From: a virus
Taxonomy: Duplodnaviria > Heunggongvirae > Uroviricota > Caudoviricetes
DNA length: 23,459 bases
Strand: one strand, 5' to 3'
Virus record (IMG/VR): IMGVR_UViG_3300035180_000678
Part shown: positions 4,053-23,249 of the stretch, one piece after another
How the letters are laid out: every line of letters begins with the position of its first letter
Position numbering within the stretch: position 1 is the stretch's first letter
Notes under the pieces: model-generated
The model's input: only the letters and a program-made list of their open reading frames with translations
Databases searched by the model: none
Told to the model about the DNA's origin: nothing
Translations under genes and position numbers: made by a program

Positions 4053-5327
4053 ATGCCCATCATCACCCGCGAAGAAGGTTCCCGTCCCATCAAGGCATGG
4101 CTGGGCACGAAAGAAGTTCCGACGTATGGCTTCGAGCCGGGGACTGCGGACCAAGCCATCGAGAAAGTCATCGACGTGGAAGACGCCGCTCTCCAGCAGA
4201 CCAAGAACCTCGCCCGCCTGCCCTTCATCGCGCCGCAAGGCATCGCCCTCATGCCGGATGCCCACTTGGGCAAGGGTGCAACCGTCGGTTCCGTGGTCCC
4301 GACCATCGGCGCGATCATCCCTTCGGCTGTCGGCGTGGACCTCGGCTGTGGCATGAACGCTGTCCGCACGTCGATGAAGGCGAGCGACCTCCCCGAGAGC
4401 CTGAAGGCCATCCGTGACGCCATCGAGGCGGCTGTCCCGCTGGGCAAGGGCGGCAACCGGGACTTCGATCAAGAGACTTCGCTGCGCTCGCAAGAGTTCG
4501 GCGACCTCTACACGCGCGCCCCTCAGCAAGTCATTTACGAGGTGATGGGAGGTCATTCCGCTTTCGTGCAGAAGGCTGGTCCGCAACTCGGCTCCCTCGG
4601 CTCGGGCAACCACTTCATCGAAATCTGCACGGACGAGAACGACGACGTGTGGGTCATGCTGCATTCGGGCTCCCGTGGCATCGGCAACCTGATCGGCTCG
4701 CACTACATCGAGAAGGCCAAGAAGACGATGGAGCAATACTTCATCAACCTGCCCGACAAGGACTTGGCCTACATCCCGGATGGCACGGAGGACTTCAAGG
4801 ACTACACGGAAGCAGTGACGTGGGCGCAGGACTACGCACTGGCGAACCGTGCCGTGATGATGGATGTCGTCATCGCCGCTCTGCGGAAGCACATCTGCAA
4901 GGAGTTCGTCCTGACCAGCGAGGCCGTGAACTGCCACCACAACTACATCTCCCGCGAGAACCACTTCGGTCAGAACGTGTGGGTCACGCGCAAGGGCGCG
5001 ATCCAAGCCCGCAAGGACCAACTGGGCATCATCCCGGGCTCGATGGGTCAGAAGAGCTACATCGTGCGTGGCAAGGGCAACCCGGACTCCTACTGTTCGT
5101 GCTCGCATGGCGCTGGCCGGGCCATGTCCCGTGCGGAAGCCAAGCGGCGCTTCTCGCTGACGGACCTCGTGGCACAGACCGAAGGCGTCGAATGCCGCAA
5201 GGACGTGGATGTGCTGGACGAGATTCCGGGTGCCTACAAGCGCCTCGATGTCGTCATGGAACTCCAGAAGGACTTGGTGGAGGTGGTCCACACCCTCAAG
5301 GCCGTGCTCTGCGTGAAGGGGAACTGA
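4053..5327 (+). CDS. rtcB: RtcB RNA 3'-phosphate/5'-OH ligase
   Basis: Motifs MPDAH, GVDLGCG, LGSGNHF, HSGSRG, HHN, RKGA, PGSMG, SHGAGR, DEIPGAYK. Confidence 0.95.
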   Translation: MPIITREEGSRPIKAWLGTKEVPTYGFEPGTADQAIEKVIDVEDAALQQTKNLARLPFIAPQGIALMPDAHLGKGATVGSVVPTIGAIIPSAVGVDLGCGMNAVRTSMKASDLPESLKAIRDAIEAAVPLGKGGNRDFDQETSLRSQEFGDLYTRAPQQVIYEVMGGHSAFVQKAGPQLGSLGSGNHFIEICTDENDDVWVMLHSGSRGIGNLIGSHYIEKAKKTMEQYFINLPDKDLAYIPDGTEDFKDYTEAVTWAQDYALANRAVMMDVVIAALRKHICKEFVLTSEAVNCHHNYISRENHFGQNVWVTRKGAIQARKDQLGIIPGSMGQKSYIVRGKGNPDSYCSCSHGAGRAMSRAEAKRRFSLTDLVAQTEGVECRKDVDVLDEIPGAYKRLDVVMELQKDLVEVVHTLKAVLCVKGN

Positions 5328-10125: not shown

Positions 10126-10815
10126 ATGCGGACGTTTGTCCTCTATCGACGGGTCAGCACAAAGGAACAGGGAGACAGCAGGGCGGGCCTTGATGCTCAA
10201 GCGGAGGCTATGCGGGCCTTCACTGTCGGGCATACCGTCCTCGGGTCATTCGAGGACATCGCATCGGGAAAGCTTCCGCCCGATGTCAGGCCGGGCCTTG
10301 CAGCAGCCTTAGAGGCCGTCAGGCGCAATAAAGGCTCTGCCTTGCTGGTATCCAAGCTTGACCGCTTGTCGCGTGACGTAGAGGTCATCGCGGGCCTTAT
10401 GAACAGGGTTCCCCTTGTCACTGTGGAGGACGGGCTTACAGCGGACCGCCTCACGTTGCACGTTAAGGCTACCATCGCGGAACAAGAAAGGCGGATGATC
10501 GGGGAGCGGACTAGGGTAGCCCTTGCAGCAAAGAAAGCGGCAGGGAAGGCCCTCGGGATGCACGCCCACAAAGACCCCACGGCAGGGGATCGAGCCCGGG
10601 CCGCTAGTGCCGTTGCAGTGAAGGCAAACGCGGACGCGTGCGCCCGGCACGTGGCACCGACCCTGCTAGCCCTCAAGCGGGGCGGGTTGACGTTGTCACA
10701 GATTGCGGATCAAATGAACGCCCTACAGGTTGCCACGCCTAGGGGTGGACAGTGGTACGCTTCCGGAGTCTGCAACATGCTTTCCCGGATTGCGAAACTG
10801 GGCATCACAGTGTGA
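10126..10815 (+). CDS. serine recombinase (resolvase/invertase catalytic domain plus short C-terminal DNA-binding domain)
   Basis: GGAGG SD; catalytic YRRVST..Q...[12 protein letters not shown]; C-terminal IA..MN.....TPRGG.W....V..ML.R. Confidence 0.92.
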
Positions 10816-11257: not shown

Positions 11258-11281
11258 AAAAAGCCCGCACTAGGCGGGCTT
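11258..11281 (-). terminator. intrinsic terminator ending the minus-strand cassette
   Basis: Minus strand: AAGCCCGC-CTAGT-GCGGGC-TTTTT. Confidence 0.85.
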
Positions 11282-11297
11282 CCGTTTGTGTCAGGCG

Positions 11298-11528
11298 TCA
11301 GCGTCGGGGCAATTTGAGAGCCCGGGACGCGGCGGAGGGTGTCGCGGGCTGATAGCTGATATCATGCCCTTTCTTGATGTGCGCTATTGCGTAGTGCGGG
11401 GCTTCCGTGCTGTCGCGGGTGTCGATCCGGACAGTGATCCCGTTCCGGCTCAGAAAGTAGAGAGCCCCGGAAACGTGAAGATCGCACCCGACAGCATGGG
11501 CACGGCGGAGGAATTCTGCAAGAGTCAT
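11298..11528 (-). CDS. hypothetical protein, 76 aa (MTLAEFLRR...)
   Basis: AAGAAAG SD-like sequence; own promoter at 11578-11607. Confidence 0.7.
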   Translation of the reverse strand: MTLAEFLRRAHAVGCDLHVSGALYFLSRNGITVRIDTRDSTEAPHYAIAHIKKGHDISYQPATPSAASRALKLPRR

Positions 11529-12011: not shown

Positions 12012-12041
12012 ATCATACACCCTTTGACGTTTTGTATGCAA
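12012..12041 (-). promoter_or_regulatory. sigma70 promoter
   Basis: TTGCAT-18-TATGAT. Confidence 0.6.
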
Positions 12042-12137
12042 GCCCCTTCGGTTTGCAGGGTCTTTATGTTCTTCGGGCGTTCTCATGCCTGAGATTTTCC
12101 GGGATGTCACTAGGGCAAACGCTTAGTCAAAGAGAAA

Positions 12138-12183
12138 CGGGCAGGGTTGGATTATGCCCCCGGAGCCGGTTCCCGACGCTGTG
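12138..12183 (-). ncRNA. putative ~48-nt small RNA, copy B
   Basis: Downstream of TTGCAG-19-TACAAT (12219-12189); shares CAGCRTCGG and GCATAATCCAACCCTGC with the copy at 20322-20371; no ORF. Confidence 0.45.
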
Positions 12184-12255
12184 CCCGGATTGTACCCGGG
12201 GGGAGCGTCAGACCTGCAAGCCCTTTAGGGAAGCCCTTTCGGGCCGTAGGGTCTT

Positions 12256-12447
12256 TCAACCCTTCAGGCTTGCCACGCATTCCGCGAGACTGGGAAACGT
12301 CAAGCCTGTCAGGCGAGAGCCCCGGGGATGATAGGTGTAGCCCTTCCCCGTGCCCTGTTTCGTCTCTTTGATGACTCCCACGGCCCGGCCGTCGAGCGTC
12401 ACATGCCATTTCCGGGGGAGGCCCGGGGACGGGTTGACTTGAATCAT
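12256..12447 (-). CDS. hypothetical protein, 63 aa
   Basis: AAGGA SD before ATG 12447. Confidence 0.7.
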   Translation of the reverse strand: MIQVNPSPGLPRKWHVTLDGRAVGVIKETKQGTGKGYTYHPRGSRLTGLTFPSLAECVASLKG

Positions 12448-12449
12448 TG

Positions 12450-12638
12450 TTAGATTCCTTTGTTGACCGTGTCGGGAGTGTGGCAGAGGAATTCGACCAT
12501 ATCGGCCCGGTCCTCCCGTCCGCCCCATTCATCGATGGCGCGGCGTTTCGCGTCACCCTCGTTTTCTGCCGTCAGGAAAACCCGAAGTTTCGTATTGCTC
12601 CGGGGGCTGTACAGGACGACGAGGAAAAGGGAGTTCAT
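12450..12638 (-). CDS. hypothetical protein, 62 aa
   Basis: GGAGA SD before ATG 12638. Confidence 0.7.
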   Translation of the reverse strand: MNSLFLVVLYSPRSNTKLRVFLTAENEGDAKRRAIDEWGGREDRADMVEFLCHTPDTVNKGI

Positions 12639-12661
12639 TAGGGTTTCTCCGGGTTGACGTT

Positions 12662-12850
12662 TCAGCAGCGATTGTCGTAGCTGTCGCGCATTTCTTCCAT
12701 CGCTTCCGCGTCGAGACGGAGGGCCGTCCGGATCATTTCGCACGCGTCCGGGTATTCGATACCCTCGTTCATCGTCATATGCGACAGGATGTCAGCGGGC
12801 GATTCTTCGCGGAACATGCGGCGGATGTCGTCTTTGGTGAAGGTTGCCAT
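12662..12850 (-). CDS. acidic hypothetical protein, 62 aa (EGIEYPDA)
   Basis: GGGG SD-like sequence; consensus promoter directly upstream. Confidence 0.75.
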   Translation of the reverse strand: MATFTKDDIRRMFREESPADILSHMTMNEGIEYPDACEMIRTALRLDAEAMEEMRDSYDNRC

Positions 12851-12886
12851 TTGAAACCCCGTTAAGGTTTTGTTTACGATGGTTCT

Positions 12887-12915
12887 ACTGTAGCCTAGTC
12901 CTAAATCCCTGTCAA
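12887..12915 (-). promoter_or_regulatory. sigma70 promoter overlapped by an inverted repeat
   Basis: TTGACA-17-TACAGT; CCTAGTCCTAA 12894-12904 / TTAGGACTAGG 12926-12936. Confidence 0.85.
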
Positions 12916-12956
12916 GCGTAGGGGCTTAGGACTAGGCCCCGAAGGGCCTTCGGGCT

Positions 12957-13178
12957 CTAGCTGGCCCGGGCCGTGTTGCCGATCGCGTGCGGTCCGCTGA
13001 TGTCGCGGAGCTTCAGGGAGACGCGACGATTGTCCGCACGGCGGACCATGAGGGCGGAGCCGTGCCCGTTCGTGCCGATGACAGTGGCGGGCTTGCCCGT
13101 GGGCATCATGACGGCGGACCCGAGGGGATGCACGGACAGGACGGAACGGCGGGCGATGCGGCGTTGGGATGCGTTCAT
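12957..13178 (-). CDS. basic hypothetical protein, 73 aa
   Basis: GGAG SD; fits the cassette organisation. Confidence 0.65.
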   Translation of the reverse strand: MNASQRRIARRSVLSVHPLGSAVMMPTGKPATVIGTNGHGSALMVRRADNRRVSLKLRDISGPHAIGNTARAS

Positions 13179-13258
13179 AGCGTATGACTCCGGTTAGGGA
13201 TGCGGCGGGAATTCGCCCCAAAGCCCCCATTGTGTTAGAGGCTTTCGGGTGGATTCTG

Positions 13259-13489
13259 TCAGTAGCGGAGGGCTTGCGGAAGTCTGCTGTAATGGTAGTC
13301 CGCCGCTTCCTCCGTGCGGATGGCGGAGGGAATCTGCCCCGCGAGACGTTGACGGCGGGCCATTCGGACGATATGCGCGAGCCGTTGCAGGGCATCGAAT
13401 GCATCGCACGCATCGTCGAGTTCCGCGTCCGTCAGGTCGTCCAGATTCGGGCATTCGAGGCCCGGGATGATGGTTTCAGGGCGGAGCAT
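13259..13489 (-). CDS. hypothetical protein, 76 aa (RLAGQI..A...E..AD..Y..LP)
   Basis: AAGGGA SD; promoter element at 13519-13564. Confidence 0.75.
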   Translation of the reverse strand: MLRPETIIPGLECPNLDDLTDAELDDACDAFDALQRLAHIVRMARRQRLAGQIPSAIRTEEAADYHYSRLPQALRY

Positions 13490-13518
13490 CAGAAAATCCC
13501 TTGTGTTTCGATGTCTAG

Positions 13519-13564
13519 ACTATAGCAGAGATTTTCCTGTCTCTGCTACTAGGGCAAACCCTTA
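13519..13564 (-). promoter_or_regulatory. -10 element plus palindromic operator, no consensus -35
   Basis: TATAGT at 13524-13519; TAGGGCAAACCCTTA 13550-13564; intervening inverted repeat TAGCAGAGA/TCTCTGCTA. Confidence 0.6.
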
Positions 13565-13573
13565 CAGGTTTCC

Positions 13574-13792
13574 TTACAGGATGTCAACCTGTACGTTAAT
13601 CCCATGCCGGACAGTGGCAAGCCCGATAGCGACAGGATCGGCGTTCAGGTCGTGCGCCACGTCGATAAATGCCAGCATGGGGACGCCTTGCAGCATTTCG
13701 AGGGCTTGCCGATAGGTAATCCCGTTCAGGACGACAGCCCCGGAACCCTGCCCGAAGATGATACGAAGTTTCTGATGTGCCCGGATTTTCAT
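13574..13792 (-). CDS. hypothetical protein, 72 aa
   Basis: AGGAA SD before ATG 13792. Confidence 0.7.
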   Translation of the reverse strand: MKIRAHQKLRIIFGQGSGAVVLNGITYRQALEMLQGVPMLAFIDVAHDLNADPVAIGLATVRHGINVQVDIL

Positions 13793-13815
13793 GTCTGTTC
13801 CTGTAGTGTGTCCAT

Positions 13816-13846
13816 AGTGTAGCAGAGAATCGGGGCTTAGTGTCAA
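13816..13846 (-). promoter_or_regulatory. sigma70-like promoter
   Basis: TTGACA-19-TACACT; palindrome TAGGGGTTGCCCTGTA at 13861-13876. Confidence 0.5.
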
Positions 13847-13879
13847 GCCCCTTTCACGTGTAGGGGTTGCCCTGTAGGG

Positions 13880-14572
13880 CTATCGATTCTTCCGGGTGTC
13901 GTCCAGATAATACCAGACGTTGCAGAGACGGACGAGCATCGCGTTAGCCTCCCCGGAGGCTGTCGAGAAAAGCACGTCATCCGCGAACCCGTTTCCCATG
14001 TCCGATTCCATGAGGTCCAATTCTCCGTAGGAATCGAGGTCTTTCCCCTTCACATGGCGCACATGGGCACGGAGCAGGGCGAAGCGTTGGTTATGGTCCC
14101 ATTCGCTCAGGTCGCCCCATTCCGCCACGTCCGGGGAATAGAACGATGCGAACCCGGAACGGGACGTAAACATTTCCTCGGCGATGGTGTCGAGAATTTC
14201 GCGGGGCGTCTCTTTGAAAACGCGGGCGATGTCCTCGTTATCCCATTCCGCGAAAATGCGGTCCGTTGAAAAATTGTACTCCCGAGGGGAGGACAGGCTT
14301 TCCCATTTCAGGCGAACCCCGAATTCTTCCGCGAAAGCTTCGCAGTAGCGGACGGAATAGGCCACGTGTACCGCTTGCCATTCGATGCAATCGAACGCCC
14401 GTCCCTGCAATTCCTCGTTCACGTGACAGCCCGTGTCACGGTCCGAAAACATCATTTCGAGAGCCCTGTCTAGGGCGTCATCGTGCCACGAGTTATAGAA
14501 CCCGGAGAACGGGACGACCACGAGGGAAGAGGGGCGGGTGATGTCCGCGAGGGCTTGCGAAAGGTTATCCAT
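13880..14572 (-). CDS. acidic hypothetical protein, 230 aa (PFSGFYNS; SPREYNFSTDRIF)
   Basis: Longest ORF of the cassette, protein-like composition; function not assignable. Confidence 0.85.
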   Translation of the reverse strand: MDNLSQALADITRPSSLVVVPFSGFYNSWHDDALDRALEMMFSDRDTGCHVNEELQGRAFDCIEWQAVHVAYSVRYCEAFAEEFGVRLKWESLSSPREYNFSTDRIFAEWDNEDIARVFKETPREILDTIAEEMFTSRSGFASFYSPDVAEWGDLSEWDHNQRFALLRAHVRHVKGKDLDSYGELDLMESDMGNGFADDVLFSTASGEANAMLVRLCNVWYYLDDTRKNR

Positions 14573-14582
14573 GATCGGGCTT

Positions 14583-14798
14583 TCAGGCGTGGCAGAATTG
14601 GCGGAAGAGGTCAAGCGGGGTCCGGACGGTAACGGGGCAGCCGTTCACGTTGCGAGTGCAGACCATGACAACATCGGACGCGGGGTAAATGTCCGGGACG
14701 CTATCGGCGCATTCCTGCGCGGCGTATTCGTAAGAATCGCCTTCCCCATATCCGCATTCTTCGGAATTGGCGTACAGGGCGGTTACTTGATAAGTCAT
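14583..14798 (-). CDS. acidic hypothetical protein, 71 aa
   Basis: Directly downstream of a consensus promoter. Confidence 0.75.
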   Translation of the reverse strand: MTYQVTALYANSEECGYGEGDSYEYAAQECADSVPDIYPASDVVMVCTRNVNGCPVTVRTPLDLFRQFCHA

Positions 14799-14830
14799 GA
14801 TCGGAGGTCCGTTTGCGTTTCGATGCCTCT

Positions 14831-14859
14831 ACTGTAGGGGACCGTTTAGGTTTTGTCAA
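14831..14859 (-). promoter_or_regulatory. sigma70 promoter
   Basis: TTGACA-17-TACAGT. Confidence 0.85.
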
Positions 14860-14894
14860 CCGTTTACGGAAACCCCTACGGGACGGAGGGTCTT

Positions 14895-15119
14895 TCAGGC
14901 TTGAACGCGGCGGGCGATGGTGCGAGCCCCGAAGAGGATACGCCCGGAACACGGGGCCAGACAGGGGAGCCATTCCATCGCTTCGCGGGCCGTATAGCAC
15001 ATTTGAAACGTGCCGTAATCGTCGAGCGCGACATACGGGGCGAAGCGGACGCGGAGGGCGTGATCCGCACGGCGGACCGTTGCACGGATACGGGCGCGGA
15101 GGGTTTGCTTACGGGCCAT
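14895..15119 (-). CDS. hypothetical protein, 74 aa
   Basis: AGGT SD; promoter at 15155-15184. Confidence 0.7.
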   Translation of the reverse strand: MARKQTLRARIRATVRRADHALRVRFAPYVALDDYGTFQMCYTAREAMEWLPCLAPCSGRILFGARTIARRVQA

Positions 15120-15154
15120 TTCGTTACCTGTCGGGTTCGTTGCGGTATGGGATC

Positions 15155-15184
15155 ATTATGCAACGTGAACGCCCGGGCTGTCAA
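15155..15184 (-). promoter_or_regulatory. sigma70 promoter
   Basis: TTGACA-18-CATAAT. Confidence 0.75.
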
Positions 15185-15207
15185 TTCCCGAGCATTCCGG
15201 AGGGGCT

Positions 15208-15480
15208 TTACAGCACGAGGGCGAGAAAGGCCCCGATTGCGGCGGAGGCTGTCACGATTGCGAGGACATCGCCACGCGTCAGAATGACGGGCAGGCGGAG
15301 CCATTGAAGGGCGGAGCGTTTCGGCATGGTGGCGGGCTTCCTGTTGCACGTTGAGGGCATCAATGCGGGGTGTCCGTGGGTTCGCTGGTGAACGTCCCAC
15401 AGGGACAGAGACACGAGGGCTAGCGCCTCGTTCGCGGCGTATTCGGACCGCACGGGCAGAGTGTGAAGGGTTGCAGTCAT
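15208..15480 (-). CDS. hypothetical protein with C-terminal transmembrane helix, 90 aa
   Basis: ATG 15480; hydrophobic C-terminus. Confidence 0.6.
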   Translation of the reverse strand: MTATLHTLPVRSEYAANEALALVSLSLWDVHQRTHGHPALMPSTCNRKPATMPKRSALQWLRLPVILTRGDVLAIVTASAAIGAFLALVL

Positions 15481-15490
15481 GGCAGGATTC

Positions 15491-15613
15491 TCAGGAATGA
15501 GAACGGGCCGCACGGATGGCGCGGAGCGTTTCGCGGGCCATCGCCCGGGCTTCCGGATTGTGACGACGGCGGATGTAGATACGGGCGACAGATTCGAGCA
15601 GGACGGCGGACAT
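15491..15613 (-). CDS. Arg-rich peptide, 40 aa (MSAVLLESVARIYIRRR...)
   Basis: GGAGA SD before ATG 15613; not in the ORF track. Confidence 0.6.
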   Translation of the reverse strand: MSAVLLESVARIYIRRRHNPEARAMARETLRAIRAARSHS

Positions 15614-15640
15614 TGTGTTTTCTCCGGGGGTATGCTTTGC

Positions 15641-15683
15641 ATTCTGCCCGGGACGTTGCCCCGGGCCACTAGGGCGAACCCTA
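15641..15683 (-). promoter_or_regulatory. -10 element plus palindromic operator
   Basis: CAGAAT 15646-15641; TAGGGCGAACCCTA 15670-15683; intervening GCCCGGG/CCCGGGC inverted repeat. Confidence 0.6.
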
Positions 15684-15866
15684 GAAAGAATGCCCCGATT
15701 GAAGGGTGGACGCGTTGACGTGATACCTCATCCCGTTGTGGATTTCCACAGTGTAGGCGATGAGGGTCGAAAACGACCAGTCACGCCCGACAATGGTCCC
15801 CGTGACGGGATGGCCGTCCGTATTGGTGAAAGTGAGAGATTGACCGATTGCGAGGGCTTGCGTCAT
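15681..15866 (-). CDS. hypothetical protein, 61 aa
   Basis: GGAG SD; own promoter. Confidence 0.7.
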   Translation of the reverse strand: MTQALAIGQSLTFTNTDGHPVTGTIVGRDWSFSTLIAYTVEIHNGMRYHVNASTLQSGHSF

Positions 15867-15893
15867 GGTGTCGGGCTCCGTGTTGATGAGTCA

Positions 15894-15923
15894 ACTATAA
15901 CAGACCCTTTGACGTTTTGTAAA
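15894..15923 (-). promoter_or_regulatory. sigma70 promoter
   Basis: TTTACA-18-TATAGT. Confidence 0.65.
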
Positions 15924-15942
15924 GCCCCTCCGGGCTTTAGGG

Positions 15943-16152
15943 TCATTCGAGCGGCAAAGCTTGCATGATGCTTTCGAGACGGCGGAGGACATCGCCCGTA
16001 GCGATCCAGTCTTTCCGCGTCCCGTCAACGTCGAGCCCTTGAAACTTCGCGGACAAGAGATGCAAACGGAATTCTTCGATTTCGATTCGGGCCGCGCGAA
16101 TCACGTTTTGCTTGTCGGCGTTTTCTTGCTGGAGACGGGTAATGTAGTTCAT
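15943..16152 (-). CDS. hypothetical protein, 69 aa (LLSAKFQG.DVDG.RKDWI.T.DV)
   Basis: GGAG SD; own promoter. Confidence 0.75.
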   Translation of the reverse strand: MNYITRLQQENADKQNVIRAARIEIEEFRLHLLSAKFQGLDVDGTRKDWIATGDVLRRLESIMQALPLE

Positions 16153-16187
16153 TGCGAGGGCTCCGGGCCGTGGGTGGAATGGTTCCC

Positions 16188-16215
16188 ATTGTGGCGGGCT
16201 TTCGGAGCATGTCAA
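16188..16215 (-). promoter_or_regulatory. sigma70 promoter, near-identical to the one at 23161
   Basis: TTGACA-16-CACAAT. Confidence 0.75.
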
Positions 16216-16259
16216 GCGGAAACAGCAAAGCCCCCACAGATTGCAGGGGCTTTCCGCTT
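16214..16259. terminator. hairpin/terminator
   Basis: AAGCGGAAA/TTTCCGCTT outer arms and AAAGCCCC/GGGGCTTT inner arms. Confidence 0.55.
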
Positions 16260-16398
16260 AAAGCATCGCGGATCGCTTGTCCGTTCGGGTCCACGGGCGG
16301 CGTTTGCTTGCCGATTCGTGGCGGGCCTGTCGGGCTTCGCGGGTTTCGTGGGTGTTGCGGGTCTTGTTCGTCTTTGCGTAGGTTTTCGAGTGTTGCAC
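16258..16398 (-). CDS. basic peptide, 46 aa (MQHSKTYAKTNKTR...RTDKRSAML)
   Basis: GGAAA SD-like sequence plus GTG; fills an otherwise empty gap; not in the ORF track. Confidence 0.45.
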   Translation of the reverse strand: MQHSKTYAKTNKTRNTHETREARQARHESASKRRPWTRTDKRSAML

Positions 16399-16509
16399 GG
16401 TTTTCCGTTTCGGCGTCTTCAGTTTGATTTATAGCCCCGTAGGGCATTCGGCGATGTCTGGCAGTGTCCTACCCTTCCCGGGTAGGTTTTGAAGGCGTGG
16501 AGGGCTGTT

Positions 16510-16659
16510 CTATACGGTCCCCTCCGTGTTCCTATAGAAGCGTTCCGCCCAGTCTCTGCAATTCGCACGGCGGAGGCTTGAAAACATGATGTTGCCGTCT
16601 CGATTGATGACCCGCCACAGAGAGCCATCGCGTTTGATGCTGTAGGGTTGTCCCGTCAT
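16510..16659 (-). CDS. hypothetical protein, 49 aa
   Basis: ATG 16659 just after the upstream stop. Confidence 0.6.
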   Translation of the reverse strand: MTGQPYSIKRDGSLWRVINRDGNIMFSSLRRANCRDWAERFYRNTEGTV

Positions 16660-16663
16660 CGTA

Positions 16664-17347
16664 TCACGTCCCGAGAGAATGCACGGGATACGTGCGGCGG
16701 GCTTCGTCGGCCAAAGCCTCCCGGCACAATTCCGCGATGACTTCCGCGAAGTAATCCCCCGCGTCCGATTCGATACCCCACAGGGCATAGGCGAAAGTCT
16801 CTTCGGGTTCCTCCGCGAATTCGTCCGGGTCTTCCGGGGGAGTCACGAGGGACACGGACACTCCGCAGTAATGCCAGCCATCGTTACACCAGTCACGGAG
16901 GCGGGCGAAGTCTGCCCGGACAGCACGGGCCGCAATCTCCCTTTGCGTCATGCCCAGCCATTCCCCGAGGGGATCGCGACACGCGAGGGCCGCGCGGCGG
17001 TTGATTCGGCCCCCGCCCGTGAATCCCCATGCAGTCTGTTGGGCGATGGCCCGGGCTTCCGCTTCCCTCATGTATGCGGACGGCGGTTCATACGGGGCAT
17101 CGGGAGGGCATCCCCAGCCATCGCGCAGCGCGATTCGCTGGGCCTCTTGCGCATCGTAGAATCGACGCGATCCCCGGTCCTCGTTGATGATCCATTCCCC
17201 GGGCCGCTTGTCGCGGCGTTCCCAGCCCGTGACGGGTCCGTGTCCGTCCTCCCGTTCCCACGGGGCATCGTGGGAATCATCGTAATAGAACCGGGCGACG
17301 AATTCGCGTCCGTCATGCGTCACTTTGCGGGAATCGTAGGCTTGCAT
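16664..17347 (-). CDS. hypothetical protein, 227 aa (PWEREDGHGPV..W...KRPGE...RFYD...DGWG)
   Basis: Long protein-like ORF with a promoter element upstream. Confidence 0.85.
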   Translation of the reverse strand: MQAYDSRKVTHDGREFVARFYYDDSHDAPWEREDGHGPVTGWERRDKRPGEWIINEDRGSRRFYDAQEAQRIALRDGWGCPPDAPYEPPSAYMREAEARAIAQQTAWGFTGGGRINRRAALACRDPLGEWLGMTQREIAARAVRADFARLRDWCNDGWHYCGVSVSLVTPPEDPDEFAEEPEETFAYALWGIESDAGDYFAEVIAELCREALADEARRTYPVHSLGT

Positions 17348-17380
17348 TTTGTTTGCCTGAAGTGTTGCGGGATGCTTTGC

Positions 17381-17425
17381 ATTCTGCCCGGAACCGTAGT
17401 TCCGGGCTACTAGGGGAAACCCTTA
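17381..17425 (-). promoter_or_regulatory. -10 element plus palindromic operator
   Basis: CAGAAT 17386-17381; TAGGGGAAACCCTTA 17411-17425; intervening GCCCGGAAC/GTTCCGGGC inverted repeat; 20-bp identity with 15632-15651. Confidence 0.65.
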
Positions 17426-17953
17426 GCGGTAGAGGTATGAGGTCCCGTTGATATCCGTTTCGCTGTAATCGTGGCGGAGTTCCCGGGCCGCTTCCTCCCA
17501 GTCGATGCAGGTACAGGGCCACGCGGCATCCCCGGGAATCGCGCCGATGTCCTCCGCGAATTGCTGCGCGTAGTCCGTGAAATGGGTTTCGCGAATGAGG
17601 TAGCCCGGGAACCAATCGCCCTCGAATTGATGATCCCCGCCATCCCCTCGGAGTTCGTCCACGATGCCCGACAGGGTGTCGAATTCTTCGCGGTTCTCTT
17701 CCTCCCATTCGTCGAGAGCTTCCCGGGCCGCTTCCGCGTCGGATTCCGCGTCCGTAACTGCCGATTGTGCGGCGTCCGTCTCCGCGTCGGGCTCTTCGCC
17801 CGTCAGGTCATCCCGGGCGAGCTTCGCGTTTTCGAGGGCTTCCGCCGCGTCCGTGATATCGGATTCGAGGTCCGCCCGCTCGTCGCGGAGTTCCGCGAAA
17901 CGCTCCGTGATGTCGGAAACGTTGATGATGTCGTCGGAAAGGTCGAGGTTCAT
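17423..17953 (-). CDS. highly acidic ArdA-like antirestriction (DNA-mimic) protein, 176 aa
   Basis: About 52 D/E versus about 12 K/R (hand count); C-terminal DYAQQFAEDIG.IP......CIDWEEAARELRHDY resembles the ArdA C-terminal YIDYE.Y.RDL pattern. Confidence 0.65.
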   Translation of the reverse strand: MNLDLSDDIINVSDITERFAELRDERADLESDITDAAEALENAKLARDDLTGEEPDAETDAAQSAVTDAESDAEAAREALDEWEEENREEFDTLSGIVDELRGDGGDHQFEGDWFPGYLIRETHFTDYAQQFAEDIGAIPGDAAWPCTCIDWEEAARELRHDYSETDINGTSYLYR

Positions 17954-17988
17954 AGGTTCACCCGTTCGGGTTTGTTGACAGTGAAGGA

Positions 17989-18017
17989 ATTCTAAGCTAT
18001 CGGCAGGGGCCACGCAA
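17989..18017 (-). promoter_or_regulatory. sigma70 promoter
   Basis: TTGCGT-17-TAGAAT. Confidence 0.75.
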
Positions 18018-18074
18018 GCCCCTAGCGAAAGCCCCTTCGGGCTTGTCGGGAATCCCTAAAGGGACGTCCTCGGG

Positions 18075-18557
18075 TCAATAGTCCGCGAGCATGTCCGCGA
18101 GGGCTTGCCGTTCCTCCGCAGTGAAAAACGCCCGGAGTTCCGCGCCGATGTCGCAACATTCCCGATAGGTGTCGAGCGCGCGAATGGAATCGGGGTTATC
18201 CCCCATTTCGTCGCACCAGTCACGGAAAGACATATCCACCGCTTGCCCGTCGAGAATGAGGGAATGCAGGACGGATGCCGCGTCCGGGGCTTGAGGCTTC
18301 GCGGGCGTGAATTTCGTTCCGGGCTTGCGAAGCCCCGTACCCGTGAAGAAAGGGCGGGCGATGTCCGGGCAACCCTTGCGGGCGGGCTTCGCATACGTCC
18401 CGATTCGACGGAACACGGGGCGCCATTCGTCGCATTCCCAGCCCTTCCCGCCATCCGGGCGGACCGTCGGGCCGACGAGGGTAACGGAATACGTGATCCC
18501 GGCAGCCGTCAGAAATTCGGCGACTTGTTCGGGAATGGTGGCGCGTTCGATGGTCAT
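18075..18557 (-). CDS. hypothetical protein, 160 aa (SFRDWCDEMG.NPDSIRAL.TY..C)
   Basis: Long protein-like ORF under a consensus promoter. Confidence 0.85.
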   Translation of the reverse strand: MTIERATIPEQVAEFLTAAGITYSVTLVGPTVRPDGGKGWECDEWRPVFRRIGTYAKPARKGCPDIARPFFTGTGLRKPGTKFTPAKPQAPDAASVLHSLILDGQAVDMSFRDWCDEMGDNPDSIRALDTYRECCDIGAELRAFFTAEERQALADMLADY

Positions 18558-18591
18558 TTGTCTACCCGTGGGTTTGTGTTGCGATGTCTAG

Positions 18592-18620
18592 ACTGTAGGG
18601 CATTGATGTTTTGTTGTCAA
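18592..18620 (-). promoter_or_regulatory. sigma70 promoter
   Basis: TTGACA-17-TACAGT; downstream 25 bp nearly identical to 13501-13525. Confidence 0.85.
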
Positions 18621-18639
18621 GCCCCTTTGATCCATGGGG

Positions 18640-18891
18640 TTATTCGTCTTCCCGCTTGAAGTAGAACGATTCACCGGACCAGATGTGAACCGGGTTCGCG
18701 GGGTCCGGGCGGAATTCGACGCGGATATCCCCGGAACAATTCGGAATCCATCCGTCCGGGTCCGCGATTTCCACCCCGTAGGCGTCCGCGATTTCGTCCG
18801 CAAACGTCCGTTCATTCATGATTTCATCGGGGGCGAGTTCCCGCGAAAGGTACTCTTCCCCGGTTTCCGGGCTGTAAACGATGACGTGCAT
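18640..18891 (-). CDS. acidic hypothetical protein, 83 aa
   Basis: GGAG SD; own promoter. Confidence 0.75.
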   Translation of the reverse strand: MHVIVYSPETGEEYLSRELAPDEIMNERTFADEIADAYGVEIADPDGWIPNCSGDIRVEFRPDPANPVHIWSGESFYFKREDE

Positions 18892-18920
18892 TTGTCGGGC
18901 TCCGTTAGTTGAGGGTTCCC

Positions 18921-18949
18921 ATTGTGCGGACCCTTTTAGGTTTTGTCAA
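18921..18949 (-). promoter_or_regulatory. sigma70 promoter
   Basis: TTGACA-17-CACAAT; palindrome AGGGGAAGCCCTTA upstream at 18956-18969. Confidence 0.8.
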
Positions 18950-18981
18950 CCCTTCAGGGGAAGCCCTTACGGGCTAGAGGG

Positions 18982-19215
18982 TTATTCCCTCGTCAGGTCG
19001 CCCGTTTCCGGGTCTTGCACGTATTCTGCGGCGGGCTTGTCCGTATACAGGGGATCGGCGGAGGTGTACAGCGTCACGCGTTCCGGGGCGTCCTCGTTCC
19101 CTTCGATGGTGAACGATTGAAAGGGCGGAGCGTCCGGGAACGAACGGAGGGCCGTATCCCGGAGCCATTCGCAATCTTCCGGGGCGTTCAGGAATTGAGG
19201 GGCGCGGGCCATCAT
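18982..19215 (-). CDS. hypothetical protein, 77 aa (EDCEWL...GNEDAP)
   Basis: ATGA overlap with the upstream gene. Confidence 0.75.
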   Translation of the reverse strand: MMARAPQFLNAPEDCEWLRDTALRSFPDAPPFQSFTIEGNEDAPERVTLYTSADPLYTDKPAAEYVQDPETGDLTRE

Positions 19216-19529
19216 TCGCCCCCTTCCTCGTCCGTGTCGTCTCCGTACATTTCCGCCAGATACGCGAGGGCTTCCGCTTCCGTGTTGTGCGCGGTCCAGT
19301 CCGTGCAATCGAGGTAGCCCGGGGCGGACATGCGCGCGAGCCATCCCGATTCCGTGGGGATGATTTCTTGCGGGTCGTCCGGAGTCCCTTCTAAATAGTC
19401 CGCCAGAATCGAAGCCTCCACGCCTCCGACACGGAGGGACAGCACGTCAGCGGGGACCGTCTCCGTACCGGCCGACGTGTTCACGCGGAAGAATTCGCCT
19501 TGATAAACTTGCGGTTGCATGAAAGACAT
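19212..19529 (-). CDS. acidic hypothetical protein, 105 aa (GWLARMSAPGYLDCTDW)
   Basis: Protein-like ORF under a consensus promoter. Confidence 0.8.
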   Translation of the reverse strand: MSFMQPQVYQGEFFRVNTSAGTETVPADVLSLRVGGVEASILADYLEGTPDDPQEIIPTESGWLARMSAPGYLDCTDWTAHNTEAEALAYLAEMYGDDTDEEGGE

Positions 19530-19602
19530 TTCGGTTTCTCATTCGTGAGAATCGGCGGGCTTGCCGATGGTTCCCGGAGGGCGTCCGGAGCGCATGACTG
19601 CG

Positions 19603-19631
19603 AGTGTAGGCGATGAGGGAGCGTAACGCAA
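19603..19631 (-). promoter_or_regulatory. sigma70 promoter
   Basis: TTGCGT-17-TACACT. Confidence 0.7.
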
Positions 19632-19653
19632 GCCCCTTAGATTTGTAGGGGCT

Positions 19654-20109
19654 TCAGGCCGTCACGCGCTCCCTCTCCCTCCGTTGCATGGAAGGATGCC
19701 GGGAGGTCCGCCCGATGCGGTCAACATGCCCGGGGGAGGGCTTGAAGGGCTCCCGGGGGCGTTCCTGTTGCCTGTTGCCATTCACAGGCGGGCGGATGAC
19801 TTCGCGGGGCTGTCGGTCCGTGTCACGCTCCGGGGCTTCGATATCGAAACGAATCCGGGCCATGACTTCCCCGAGGATGTCCGCACGGACGCGGGGCGAA
19901 GGGTGCCAGTCTGCCACGCGAACGAAGGACGGACGGGCCGGGATGCCCGGGCGGATGACGAGCCATCGCAAGCCCTCCGGAGTCATGCGGCGGAGGGGGC
20001 GGGACGGGATGCCCAACGCATCCGCACGAGTCCGGGCGTCCGCATAGTCTGTGAAGGGCTCCGCCACGAGGGAAGAGGGGGCGGGCGATGTCTTGCGGTA
20101 TGTCGTCAT
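19654..20109 (-). CDS. Arg/Pro-rich hypothetical protein, 151 aa
   Basis: AAGG SD; first gene of the cassette under its own promoter; low complexity lowers confidence. Confidence 0.55.
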   Translation of the reverse strand: MTTYRKTSPAPSSLVAEPFTDYADARTRADALGIPSRPLRRMTPEGLRWLVIRPGIPARPSFVRVADWHPSPRVRADILGEVMARIRFDIEAPERDTDRQPREVIRPPVNGNRQQERPREPFKPSPGHVDRIGRTSRHPSMQRRERERVTA

Positions 20110-20154
20110 GGTCTGCCTTCATAGTGGGCGGGATGCCCGGTTTTGAAGGTTTGC

Positions 20155-20183
20155 ACTATGCACGACACGGGCGGGCGTGACAA
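20155..20183 (-). promoter_or_regulatory. sigma70 promoter
   Basis: TTGTCA-17-CATAGT. Confidence 0.65.
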
Positions 20184-20284
20184 GTCAGAATCTAGGGGGA
20201 ATTGATGGTAGGACAATTCTTACACGGCAGAGCAGAAACTGCAAGTAACGCGATGTAATGCCCTTCGGGTTTGTCGGGTATTGC

Positions 20285-20315
20285 TTGACGGGCGAAGCGG
20301 AGGCGGCGGTATAAT
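20285..20315 (+). promoter_or_regulatory. sigma70 promoter facing away from the cassette
   Basis: TTGACG-19-TATAAT with no downstream ORF. Confidence 0.6.
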
Positions 20316-20321
20316 AGGGGC

Positions 20322-20371
20322 GCAGCATCGGAAGAGAGGCCGTCCCCCGGGTGCATAATCCAACCCTGCGC
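20322..20371 (+). ncRNA. putative ~48-nt small RNA, copy A
   Basis: GCAGCATCGGAAGAGAGGCCGTCCCCCGGGTGCATAATCCAACCCTGCGC; promoter upstream; paralog at 12138-12183 on the minus strand. Confidence 0.45.
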
Positions 20372-20524
20372 GTCTCCCGGACACTAAGGGTTCACCCTTA
20401 CGGGTTTGTCCCGATGACAGCCCCGGAATACCCGCTAGAATCCGCTCCCATACGGTCAAACGACCGTAGGGCCGTTAGCGCCCGTCGTTCTTTATCATAG
20501 GGTTATCCCCTAGGTCCGTCGCGA

Positions 20525-20643
20525 GACGCCCGTCGATAGCCTGAGGCTAACGGACACCCGTCCATGATAGCCGACAGCCGTCTCATAGGCTCCGCCTATT
20601 GGACACTGTCTCTGATAGCCGCTCCCTATCAGACACCTGTCTG
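20525..20643 (+). repeat. degenerate tandem repeats GAC(A/G)C-N1/2-GTC-N-ATAG
   Basis: Units start at 20525, 20553, 20573, 20602 and 20632; GATAGCC occurs three times. Confidence 0.6.
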
Positions 20644-20886
20644 TTGTTTTCGCGCAACAGGCGGGTGATCGCCCGGGGGCGAGGTGGGGGAGGGGAAGCG
20701 AAGCTCATATTAGGGGAATTGGCCCCTTCCGCTAGGAAATCCCAAATCCGAAAAATCCAATTCTGAGCCAGCCCGGGAGGGCTGCCGATCTGTGGTACAG
20801 TTCACAGAATCGATGACAGCTTCCTTGTTTCTACTCTCATGCCTCTACTTGGCAATCCTCCGAGAAAGGGCCAGACGGCCCCTCCT

Positions 20887-23098: not shown

Positions 23099-23160
23099 TT
23101 TCGGACTTTCCGAGATTCCTTGAAAATCCATGAGATTGACATGGGAATTTCGGAATTTGC

Positions 23161-23188
23161 TTGACATGCTCCGAAAACTGAGCACAAT
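23161..23188 (+). promoter_or_regulatory. sigma70 promoter
   Basis: TTGACA-16-CACAAT; 30/35 identical to the promoter at 16181-16215. Confidence 0.75.
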
Positions 23189-23249
23189 GGGAACCGTCAG
23201 ACAGGGAATGGTTCTCTGTCGGCAGGATGCAATCACAGGAGAACGCATC

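Follow-up and report, generated by a model that had tools for sequence, protein, structure and literature searches.

A probable family of promoter-driven small RNAs with a covarying helix and an invariant unpaired motif in uncultured phages

Is a short, duplicated, promoter-led sequence in the genome of an uncultured tailed phage a gene for a small RNA, or is it a promoter cassette, an mRNA leader or a recombination site? This question is raised by a 23,459-nt stretch of Caudoviricetes DNA (IMG/VR record IMGVR_UViG_3300035180_000678; the whole stretch is hereafter called the window), in which an earlier reading of the letters alone (the original prediction) had proposed a putative small RNA of about 48 nt in two copies, 8 kb apart and on opposite strands. 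We found both copies where they had been placed: copy A, with its RNA core at 20322-20369 on the plus strand, and copy B, with its core at 12141-12182 on the minus strand. Our analysis indicates that A and B are probably paralogs within a small family of free-standing small RNA genes in phages, one that had not been described before.

Two diverged copies of one promoter-led element

The window corresponds to positions 57167-80625, reverse strand, of an 87,459-bp uncultured phage genome (labeled G000). Both copies follow the same order: a -35 box, a 19-nt spacer, a -10 box, a 7-nt spacer, CAGCRTCGG, a variable insert and CCGGG-K-GC; their 3' part consists of an identical 17-mer, 13 unlike bases and then a palindrome. 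The promoter of copy A (20285-20315, plus strand) comprises TTGACG at 20285-20290 and TATAAT at 20310-20315, followed by AGGGGCG and then by CAGCATCGG from 20323, with a predicted start at 20322. That of copy B (12219-12189, minus strand) comprises TTGCAG at 12219-12214 and TACAAT at 12194-12189, followed by CCGGGCA and then by CAGCGTCGG from 12181, with a predicted start at 12182. The promoter spacing and the equal start offset described in the original prediction were therefore confirmed in both copies.

The predicted RNA of copy A opens with a terminal closure, P0, formed by CA 20323-20324 and UG 20367-20368. Inside it lies a helix, P1, with its 5' strand at 20325-20331, its loop at 20332-20346 and its 3' strand at 20347-20354, including a bulged G at 20349. 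An unpaired tail follows at 20355-20366, and the invariant 17-mer covers 20353-20369. In copy B, P0 is formed by CA 12181-12180 and UG 12143-12142, and P1 by a 5' strand at 12179-12173 and a 3' strand at 12163-12156 around a 9-nt loop (12172-12164); the tail lies at 12155-12144 and the 17-mer at 12157-12141. The only difference between the window and the genome record is at position 20340 (C in the window, T in the record), which falls within the variable loop of copy A.

The pair formed by A and B is the longest inverted repeat of the window (repeat I1). In a gapped alignment of copy A with the rest of the window, copy B was recovered over 91 nt with 71% identity (E value 4.7e-10), while the next best match had an E value of 0.01. 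The 17-mer occurs just twice in the 87,459-bp genome, even when two mismatches are allowed; as an exact repeat taken alone it is marginal, since a repeat of 17 or more was reached in 3 of 40 block shuffles. The likeness between the copies is longer than had been described: it spans the -10 box to about +120 with 74% column identity, taking in the palindrome and a TGACA..CCCGGAA block.

The absence of an open reading frame (ORF) noted in the original prediction also held. The two copies share no ORF, and all sense frames through the core of copy B stop within 10 codons. The register of the open antisense frames changes from one family member to another, and insertions and deletions in the loop are not multiples of three; an antisense peptide (..DYAPG..) was accordingly rejected as a by-product of DNA conservation. 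No codon periodicity was found in the approximately 770 nt around and after copy A.

We then compared the element with known RNAs using Rfam 15, whose families include C4/CI antisense RNA, the direct repeats of clustered regularly interspaced short palindromic repeats (CRISPR-DR families), riboswitches and small ribozymes. Across the whole window with E values up to 1, the only match, at 11260-11330, was to the unrelated Yfr1 family and scored 24 bits, below the threshold of 38. When regions of 401 nt and 181 nt around A and B were searched with E values up to 10, no family reached its gathering threshold, and the only matches lay on the wrong strand (14.9 and 9.4 bits against thresholds of 59 and 45). 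ARAGORN detected no tRNA-like gene, and a literature search with the motif strings returned no match. Based on these results, the family appears new; the original prediction had likewise recognized no known family in it.

Homologs in other phages

The known family comprises ten copies in seven contigs: A and B, plus eight more in six additional phage or phage-like contigs, whose GC content ranges from 39% to 63%. BLAST searches with the region and with copy A gave no match among 50,697 cultured phage records, and the relatives came instead from uncultured contigs, through patterns and a covariance model. A profile search of the contigs matched by a scan for the 17-mer yielded two copies in L104 (GC 49%) and one in L121 (GC 39%). 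The closest relative, G016 (87.8 kb, GC 63%, terminase 72% identical), was found with a degenerate pattern. A covariance model built from six copies added a second copy in G016, of whose two copies one had first been met as L134, and single copies in G024, G021 and G023.

The exact tail motif was present in G016 (twice), G021, G023 and G024, and in 0 of 31 other related or cultured genomes; a control search with the pattern written backwards gave one match. The element was absent from the three cultured relatives tested, and none of the relatives collected by their ligase (G001-G015) carries it.

Most other candidates were discarded. The exact 17-mer gave seven matches in IMG/VR, all by chance in AT-rich coding sequence, and 90 stretches in metagenome contigs, of which only L104 and L121 were real. 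The hairpin-plus-tail pattern matched genome contigs six times, against about eight matches expected by chance, and all six were rejected. L135 and L137 lie inside long same-strand ORFs, the remaining pattern matches look like coding sequence, and matches in contigs of bacterial metagenome-assembled genomes were also inside long ORFs. A pattern lacking the tail produced three more matches in IMG/VR, all by chance, and broader models and patterns added no further members.

A covarying helix and an invariant unpaired motif

All ten copies share one anatomy. A -10-like hexamer, often of the extended TG type, precedes a predicted start about 7 nt on, which is usually an A. After the start come CA, the P1 hairpin, an unpaired N-UAAUCC-N(1-4) segment and a UG that pairs with the 5' CA. 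In the eight copies that could be aligned to the model, the hexamer lies at a fixed distance from the RNA core in every case.

In these eight copies, variation in P1 is confined to the three outer pairs; the inner part, in which UCGG pairs with CCGG and which includes a U·G pair and a bulged G, is fixed. Across the alignment, 95.8% of cells are paired, and three pairs show changes on both sides (GC/CG, CG/UA and AU/GC/UA). The covariation score was reached by none of 500 shuffles, and sliding the partners against each other cut the pairing to 12-45%. The outer variants are readily seen in individual copies: GCA...UGC in the window is replaced by CUU...AAG in G024 and by GCG...CGC in L121, and copy 2 of G016 has a G·U pair. 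The loop of P1 is 9, 9, 13, 15, 20, 20, 21 and 31 nt long in the eight copies. Of the remaining two, G021 retains P1 in shortened form (GCAUC...GAUGGC), and in G023 the same tail is preceded by another hairpin.

The fold drawn in the original prediction, in which GCRUCGG pairs with CCGGGKGC around a variable loop and leaves AUAAUCC... unpaired, is thus backed by covariation in relatives. The closing CAG/CUG arms drawn with it were not: the closing pairs that hold throughout are CA/UG, the G being part of P1. The U·G pair is invariant in all eight alignable copies. On the opposite strand it would be an A·C mismatch, and the promoter-bearing strand is therefore the functional one.

Three further signals in the core were considered and dropped. 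A sigma-dependent pause at the -10-like CATAAT was rejected since the hexamer is not kept in G024, G021, G023 or the second copy of G016. Neither a pseudoknot between the P1 loop and the tail nor an alternative hairpin GGGNN..NNCCC had consistent support across the copies when inspected by eye.

Placement and mobility

Seven of the ten copies (A, both L104 copies, L121, G024, G021 and copy 2 of G016, the last placed by synteny) are opposite in strand to both of their neighbors, and these seven sit in intergenic gaps. Copy A leads into roughly 500 nt that show no codon periodicity, beyond which lie convergent genes, and the G024 unit runs into a bidirectional terminator. Copy B and its counterpart in G016 lie on the strand of the following gene, and after each of them come a U-rich tract and then a separate promoter for that gene. 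The original prediction had allowed that the shared segment might be only a duplicated promoter leader; the seven opposite-strand copies and the covariation of P1 speak against this.

The position of the element changes between close relatives. Among G024, G021, G023 and G025, whose flanks are 81-92% identical, the element occurs at one site, some 1 kb beyond it, on the opposite strand at a distance of over 10 kb, or, in the complete genome G025, not at all. By comparison of these sequences, the promoter and RNA together seem to behave as a small relocatable cassette. Opposite-strand placement and relocation among relatives together argue for a free-standing, relocatable RNA gene and not an mRNA leader. 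In G000 and G016, the A-like and B-like copies form orthologous pairs, which face outward from the ends of an early-gene block that is collinear but poorly conserved between the two genomes.

In the probable source sample, assembled contigs stop at both copies (window 12113-12270 and 20334-20358). Sequencing depth was 2.6 for the junction piece at copy B, 10.1 for the 8.1-kb inner block and 14-16 for the flanks. The breaks and the drop in depth suggest strain-level variation beginning at both RNA genes. The genome record lists a direct terminal repeat, which is an exact 127-bp overlap of its ends and which we take to be a circular-assembly artifact. The notion that the inner block is itself a terminal repeat was rejected, since the recorded repeat is this end overlap and the depth of the block is lower than that of the flanks, not double.

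Alternative explanations

Several observations weigh against a family of structured small RNAs and should be set beside the evidence above. Only ten copies from about four lineages are available, so that few events underlie the covariation, and the alignment was made to fit the structure. Copy B carries a G·G mismatch in P1, at a position that covaries in other copies, and the closure P0 has just two conserved pairs. Minimum free energy folds vary from copy to copy, since the C-rich tail offers the G-rich 3' strand of P1 a second pairing partner. Single-sequence folds are no more stable than those of shuffled sequences (z = -1.0 and +1.45), and the structure accordingly rests on covariation, not on energy. 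Copy A has no terminator before about 20497; the promoter-driven, non-coding, structured and independent unit of the original prediction stands, whereas its length of about 48 nt was a guess. Finally, an antisense seed directed at the phage's own genome found no support, as sites of at least 9 nt complementary to the tail number 8 in that genome against a shuffled mean of 8.4.

The closest known modules are PeSLs, mobile cassettes of an early promoter and a stem-loop in T4-type phages (PMC2839356; PMC4122927). The present element resembles them as a small module of sigma-70 promoter and hairpin that is repeated within a phage, borders variable early ORFan regions and is present, absent or displaced between close relatives. 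It could itself be a mobile early-promoter module, spread by recombination and serving to shuffle or insulate the variable early genes, with the short transcript a by-product; back-to-back promoters might, for example, boost or shield a neighboring gene. Such a module would fit the displaced or missing cassettes of close relatives, the bracketing of the poorly conserved early block by A and B in G000 and G016, and the back-to-back arrangement of opposite-strand copies with the upstream region of the next gene. The early block is also full of hairpin-plus-TTGACA promoter repeats, like those of T4-type PeSLs (PMC2839356; PMC4122927), and contig breaks at both copies with an inner depth below that of the flanks are what strain-variable borders would produce. 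We nevertheless consider this explanation unlikely. The most conserved part of the element lies downstream of the start site and not in the promoter, and recombination-driven spread does not explain conservation over GC contents of 39-63%, the compensatory helix changes or the invariant U·G pair. PeSLs carry genome-specific motifs, and their stem-loop lies upstream of the promoter and serves as a terminator (PMC4122927), whereas here the promoter comes first, followed by the hairpin and the invariant tail. The PeSL layout does describe the hairpin-plus-promoter repeats inside the early block, where D1 and D2 stand in PeSL order. A different comparison is offered by HK022 put and lambda nut, in which two structured RNA signals just downstream of outward-facing early promoters act in cis on the polymerase transcribing the downstream operon. 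The two outward-facing copies of this phage recall putL/putR and nutL/nutR, the element begins at the 5' end of the transcript, and copy B, the B-like copy of G016 and the G023 copy lie upstream of same-strand genes. A 5' attenuator or a nut/put-type antitermination site acting on downstream genes is still quite improbable: most family copies have no same-strand genes downstream, seven of the ten point against both neighbors, copy A leads into non-periodic sequence and convergent genes, the G024 copy runs into its bidirectional terminator, and the genes after copy B and its G016 counterpart have promoters of their own. No boxA/boxB-like sequence and no two-hairpin put fold was recognized by eye.

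The copies could also be DNA sites, namely inverted crossover sites of the serine recombinase encoded at 10126-10815, which would make the 8.2-kb block between them invertible in the manner of Gin/Hin systems. They are inverted around the block, share an identical 17-bp core and have a gene of the resolvase/invertase family 1.3 kb outside copy B; G016 has the same layout, and the source-sample contigs break at both copies. Yet in two other samples, contigs (not raw reads) span each copy in the reference orientation and show no strand-change joint, and G000 and G016 are collinear over the whole region despite strong divergence. The complete genome G024 has a single copy, 11 kb from the recombinase, G025 has the recombinase and no element, and the L104 pair is in direct orientation. 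Inspected by eye, the core shows no convincing dyad symmetry; inversion would switch little, as the segment contains both promoters and these resemble each other; and RNA-type covariation with an invariant U·G pair is not accounted for. Inversion is therefore, in our judgment, highly improbable, and the same low standing applies to mimicry of a host repeat, either as an RNA anti-CRISPR (Racr, a solitary CRISPR repeat unit) or as a pseudo-antitoxin of a type III toxin-antitoxin system, both of which the original prediction had entertained. The AUAAUCC motif faintly recalls what we take to be the AUAAACCG handle of type I-E repeats. A promoter-driven hairpin with a short conserved handle-like flank in an early region also has the general look of a Racr (PMC10651486). 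Racrs copy a host CRISPR repeat, whereas the 17-mer occurs once per stretch in the 90 metagenome stretches and the hairpin-plus-tail once per stretch in the six genome stretches (about eight being expected by chance), so that no array among these stretches carries the sequence. The short A and B regions matched no CRISPR-DR family even with E values up to 10, and a loop of 9-31 nt with a freely covarying outer helix is a misfit with one fixed repeat. A ToxI-like mimic would require a tandem family with a repeat unit of about 36 nt, and the copies are single units 8 kb apart, with no tandem family at either place. A 12-mer in the copy B spacer that resembles what we take to be a Tn3-like sequence, GGTCTGACGCTC, was set aside as a coincidence, since it is absent from copy A and no transposase was seen.

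Small RNAs with no assigned function are also known from virulent phages. Both the band C/D RNAs of T4 and ncRNA1/ncRNA2 of PAK_P3 are short, abundant-type intergenic non-coding RNAs of lytic phages (PMC4933390; PMC10914365), and the phage group of PAK_P3 holds the closest cultured terminase match to the present genome (about 42% identity). The PAK_P3 RNAs are late, lie beside tRNA genes and have no start site of their own because they are processed (PMC4933390; PMC10914365). In contrast, the new family has its own promoter and sits in the early region, and the cultured relatives tested do not carry it.

Features around the two copies

The sequences that follow the cores differ. Directly 3' of the copy B core lies a U-rich tract, UUUCUCUUU (12129-12137, minus strand), which is not a canonical terminator and which, from its position, may mark where an RNA of some 55 nt ends; at this place, G016 has GUUUGCUUUUC in its B-like copy. 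An imperfect palindrome, ACTAAGCGTTTGCCCTAGT (12109-12127, minus strand), comes next and belongs to the same palindrome family as the one after copy A. The downstream 112-aa gene (11960-11622) has a separate promoter, TTGCAT-18-TATGAT, at 12012-12041 on the minus strand, and copy B is thus not simply the leader of that gene.

Copy A is followed by the palindrome TAAGGGT-TC-ACCCTTA (20385-20400, plus strand), a member of the TAGGG..CCCTTA family of this genome (D12), and by a second unit at 20414-20497 on the plus strand. This unit consists of a promoter-like ATGACA-16-TAGAAT (20414-20441), a 6-bp hairpin (20452-20467) and a terminator-like hairpin, GGGCCGUUAGCGCCC, with a U-tract (20469-20495). 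It is kept at the orthologous site in G016 with one compensatory pair and one G·U change, and it probably provides the 3' end of the copy A transcript, or else it may be a separate small RNA gene some 50 nt long. The non-coding stretch between copy A and a convergent dUTPase operon further contains, at 20520-20700, three GATAGCC repeats (near 20535, 20567 and 20615) and a strongly conserved block, CGCGCAACAGG..TCGCCCGGGGGCG (about 20643-20690), all common to G016.

The early block (window 12030-19660) is made up of small ORFs, each behind a GC hairpin and a near-consensus TTGACA-17-TACAGT/CACAAT promoter, for example at 12221-12258, 14860-14897, 15912-15949 and 18951-18988. Several of these promoters have a conserved initial transcribed sequence (repeat families D1, D2, D9, D11 and D14). 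A 37-nt inverted repeat with 86% identity (16181-16217 and 23159-23195) carries a TTGACA-16-CACAAT promoter and the conserved start GGGAACC, and represents another duplicated promoter-plus-leader pair on opposite strands. The serine recombinase gene of this lytic-looking phage is found clade-wide, with 34-53% identity in G016, G021, G023, G024 and G025, including genomes without the RNA element.

Two features were noted in other contigs. In a stretch conserved between G024 and G021 (L171 2567-2988 and L174 1016-1404), frames are open on either strand, and the stretch therefore looks like a conserved non-coding element rather than a gene. In L121 (about 10499-10560) and L104 (about 910-960 and 4540-4600), the RNA element is followed by long palindromes based on GYTGTTAGTATCTTT..AAAGATACTAACAGC, which are repeated nearby and are probably genome-specific terminators or protein sites.

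Proposed function and significance

The phage that carries A and B has replication genes of its own and also encodes an RtcB and an RNA ligase; no RNA polymerase was found among the large ORFs tested. Its nearest cultured relatives by terminase are 88-98-kb Pseudomonas myoviruses. We propose that the sigma-70 RNA polymerase of the host would start transcription about 7 nt after the -10 box, and both the type of promoter and its location would be consistent with early expression. The first 45-65 nt would fold into the CA/UG terminal closure and a 7-bp P1, in which the outer three pairs are free to covary while the inner UCGG/CCGG, with its U·G pair and bulged G, stays fixed. Such a fold would present the invariant unpaired UAAUCC, together with 1-4 mostly C residues, on its 3' side.

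The UAAUCC stretch may be the working surface of the RNA, which could act in trans, its partner being a widely conserved host component that pairs with this stretch or binds it. We favor action on a broadly conserved host RNA or protein because the unpaired motif is invariant across phages of 39-63% GC. The promoter-plus-RNA cassette is compact and moves or is lost between close relatives, and in this phage and its nearest relative two diverged copies face outward from the ends of the variable early-gene block.

A bolder version of this proposal, which we regard as rather unlikely, is that the element is a mobile, self-promoted RNA gene whose UAAUCC loop binds a universal host machine, such as an exposed rRNA loop or a conserved RNA-binding or defense protein. 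The complement of the motif, GGAUUA, presumably corresponds to the 790 loop of 16S rRNA, a 6-mer match without statistical weight. If this version were true, phages of unrelated hosts would share the same early take-over or anti-defense tool, and the two outward-facing copies would also mark and insulate a hypervariable early block.

Only a handful of small RNAs have been described from lytic phages, and hardly any has an assigned function. The family described here is compact and defined by sequence, with its own promoter, a helix backed by covariation and a short invariant unpaired motif, and it is mobile among close relatives. It is thus a tractable candidate for a trans-acting phage RNA, be it a regulator, a decoy or an anti-defense factor. 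Although the phages that carry it are uncultured, the cassette of about 100 bp can be synthesized and tested in a laboratory host.

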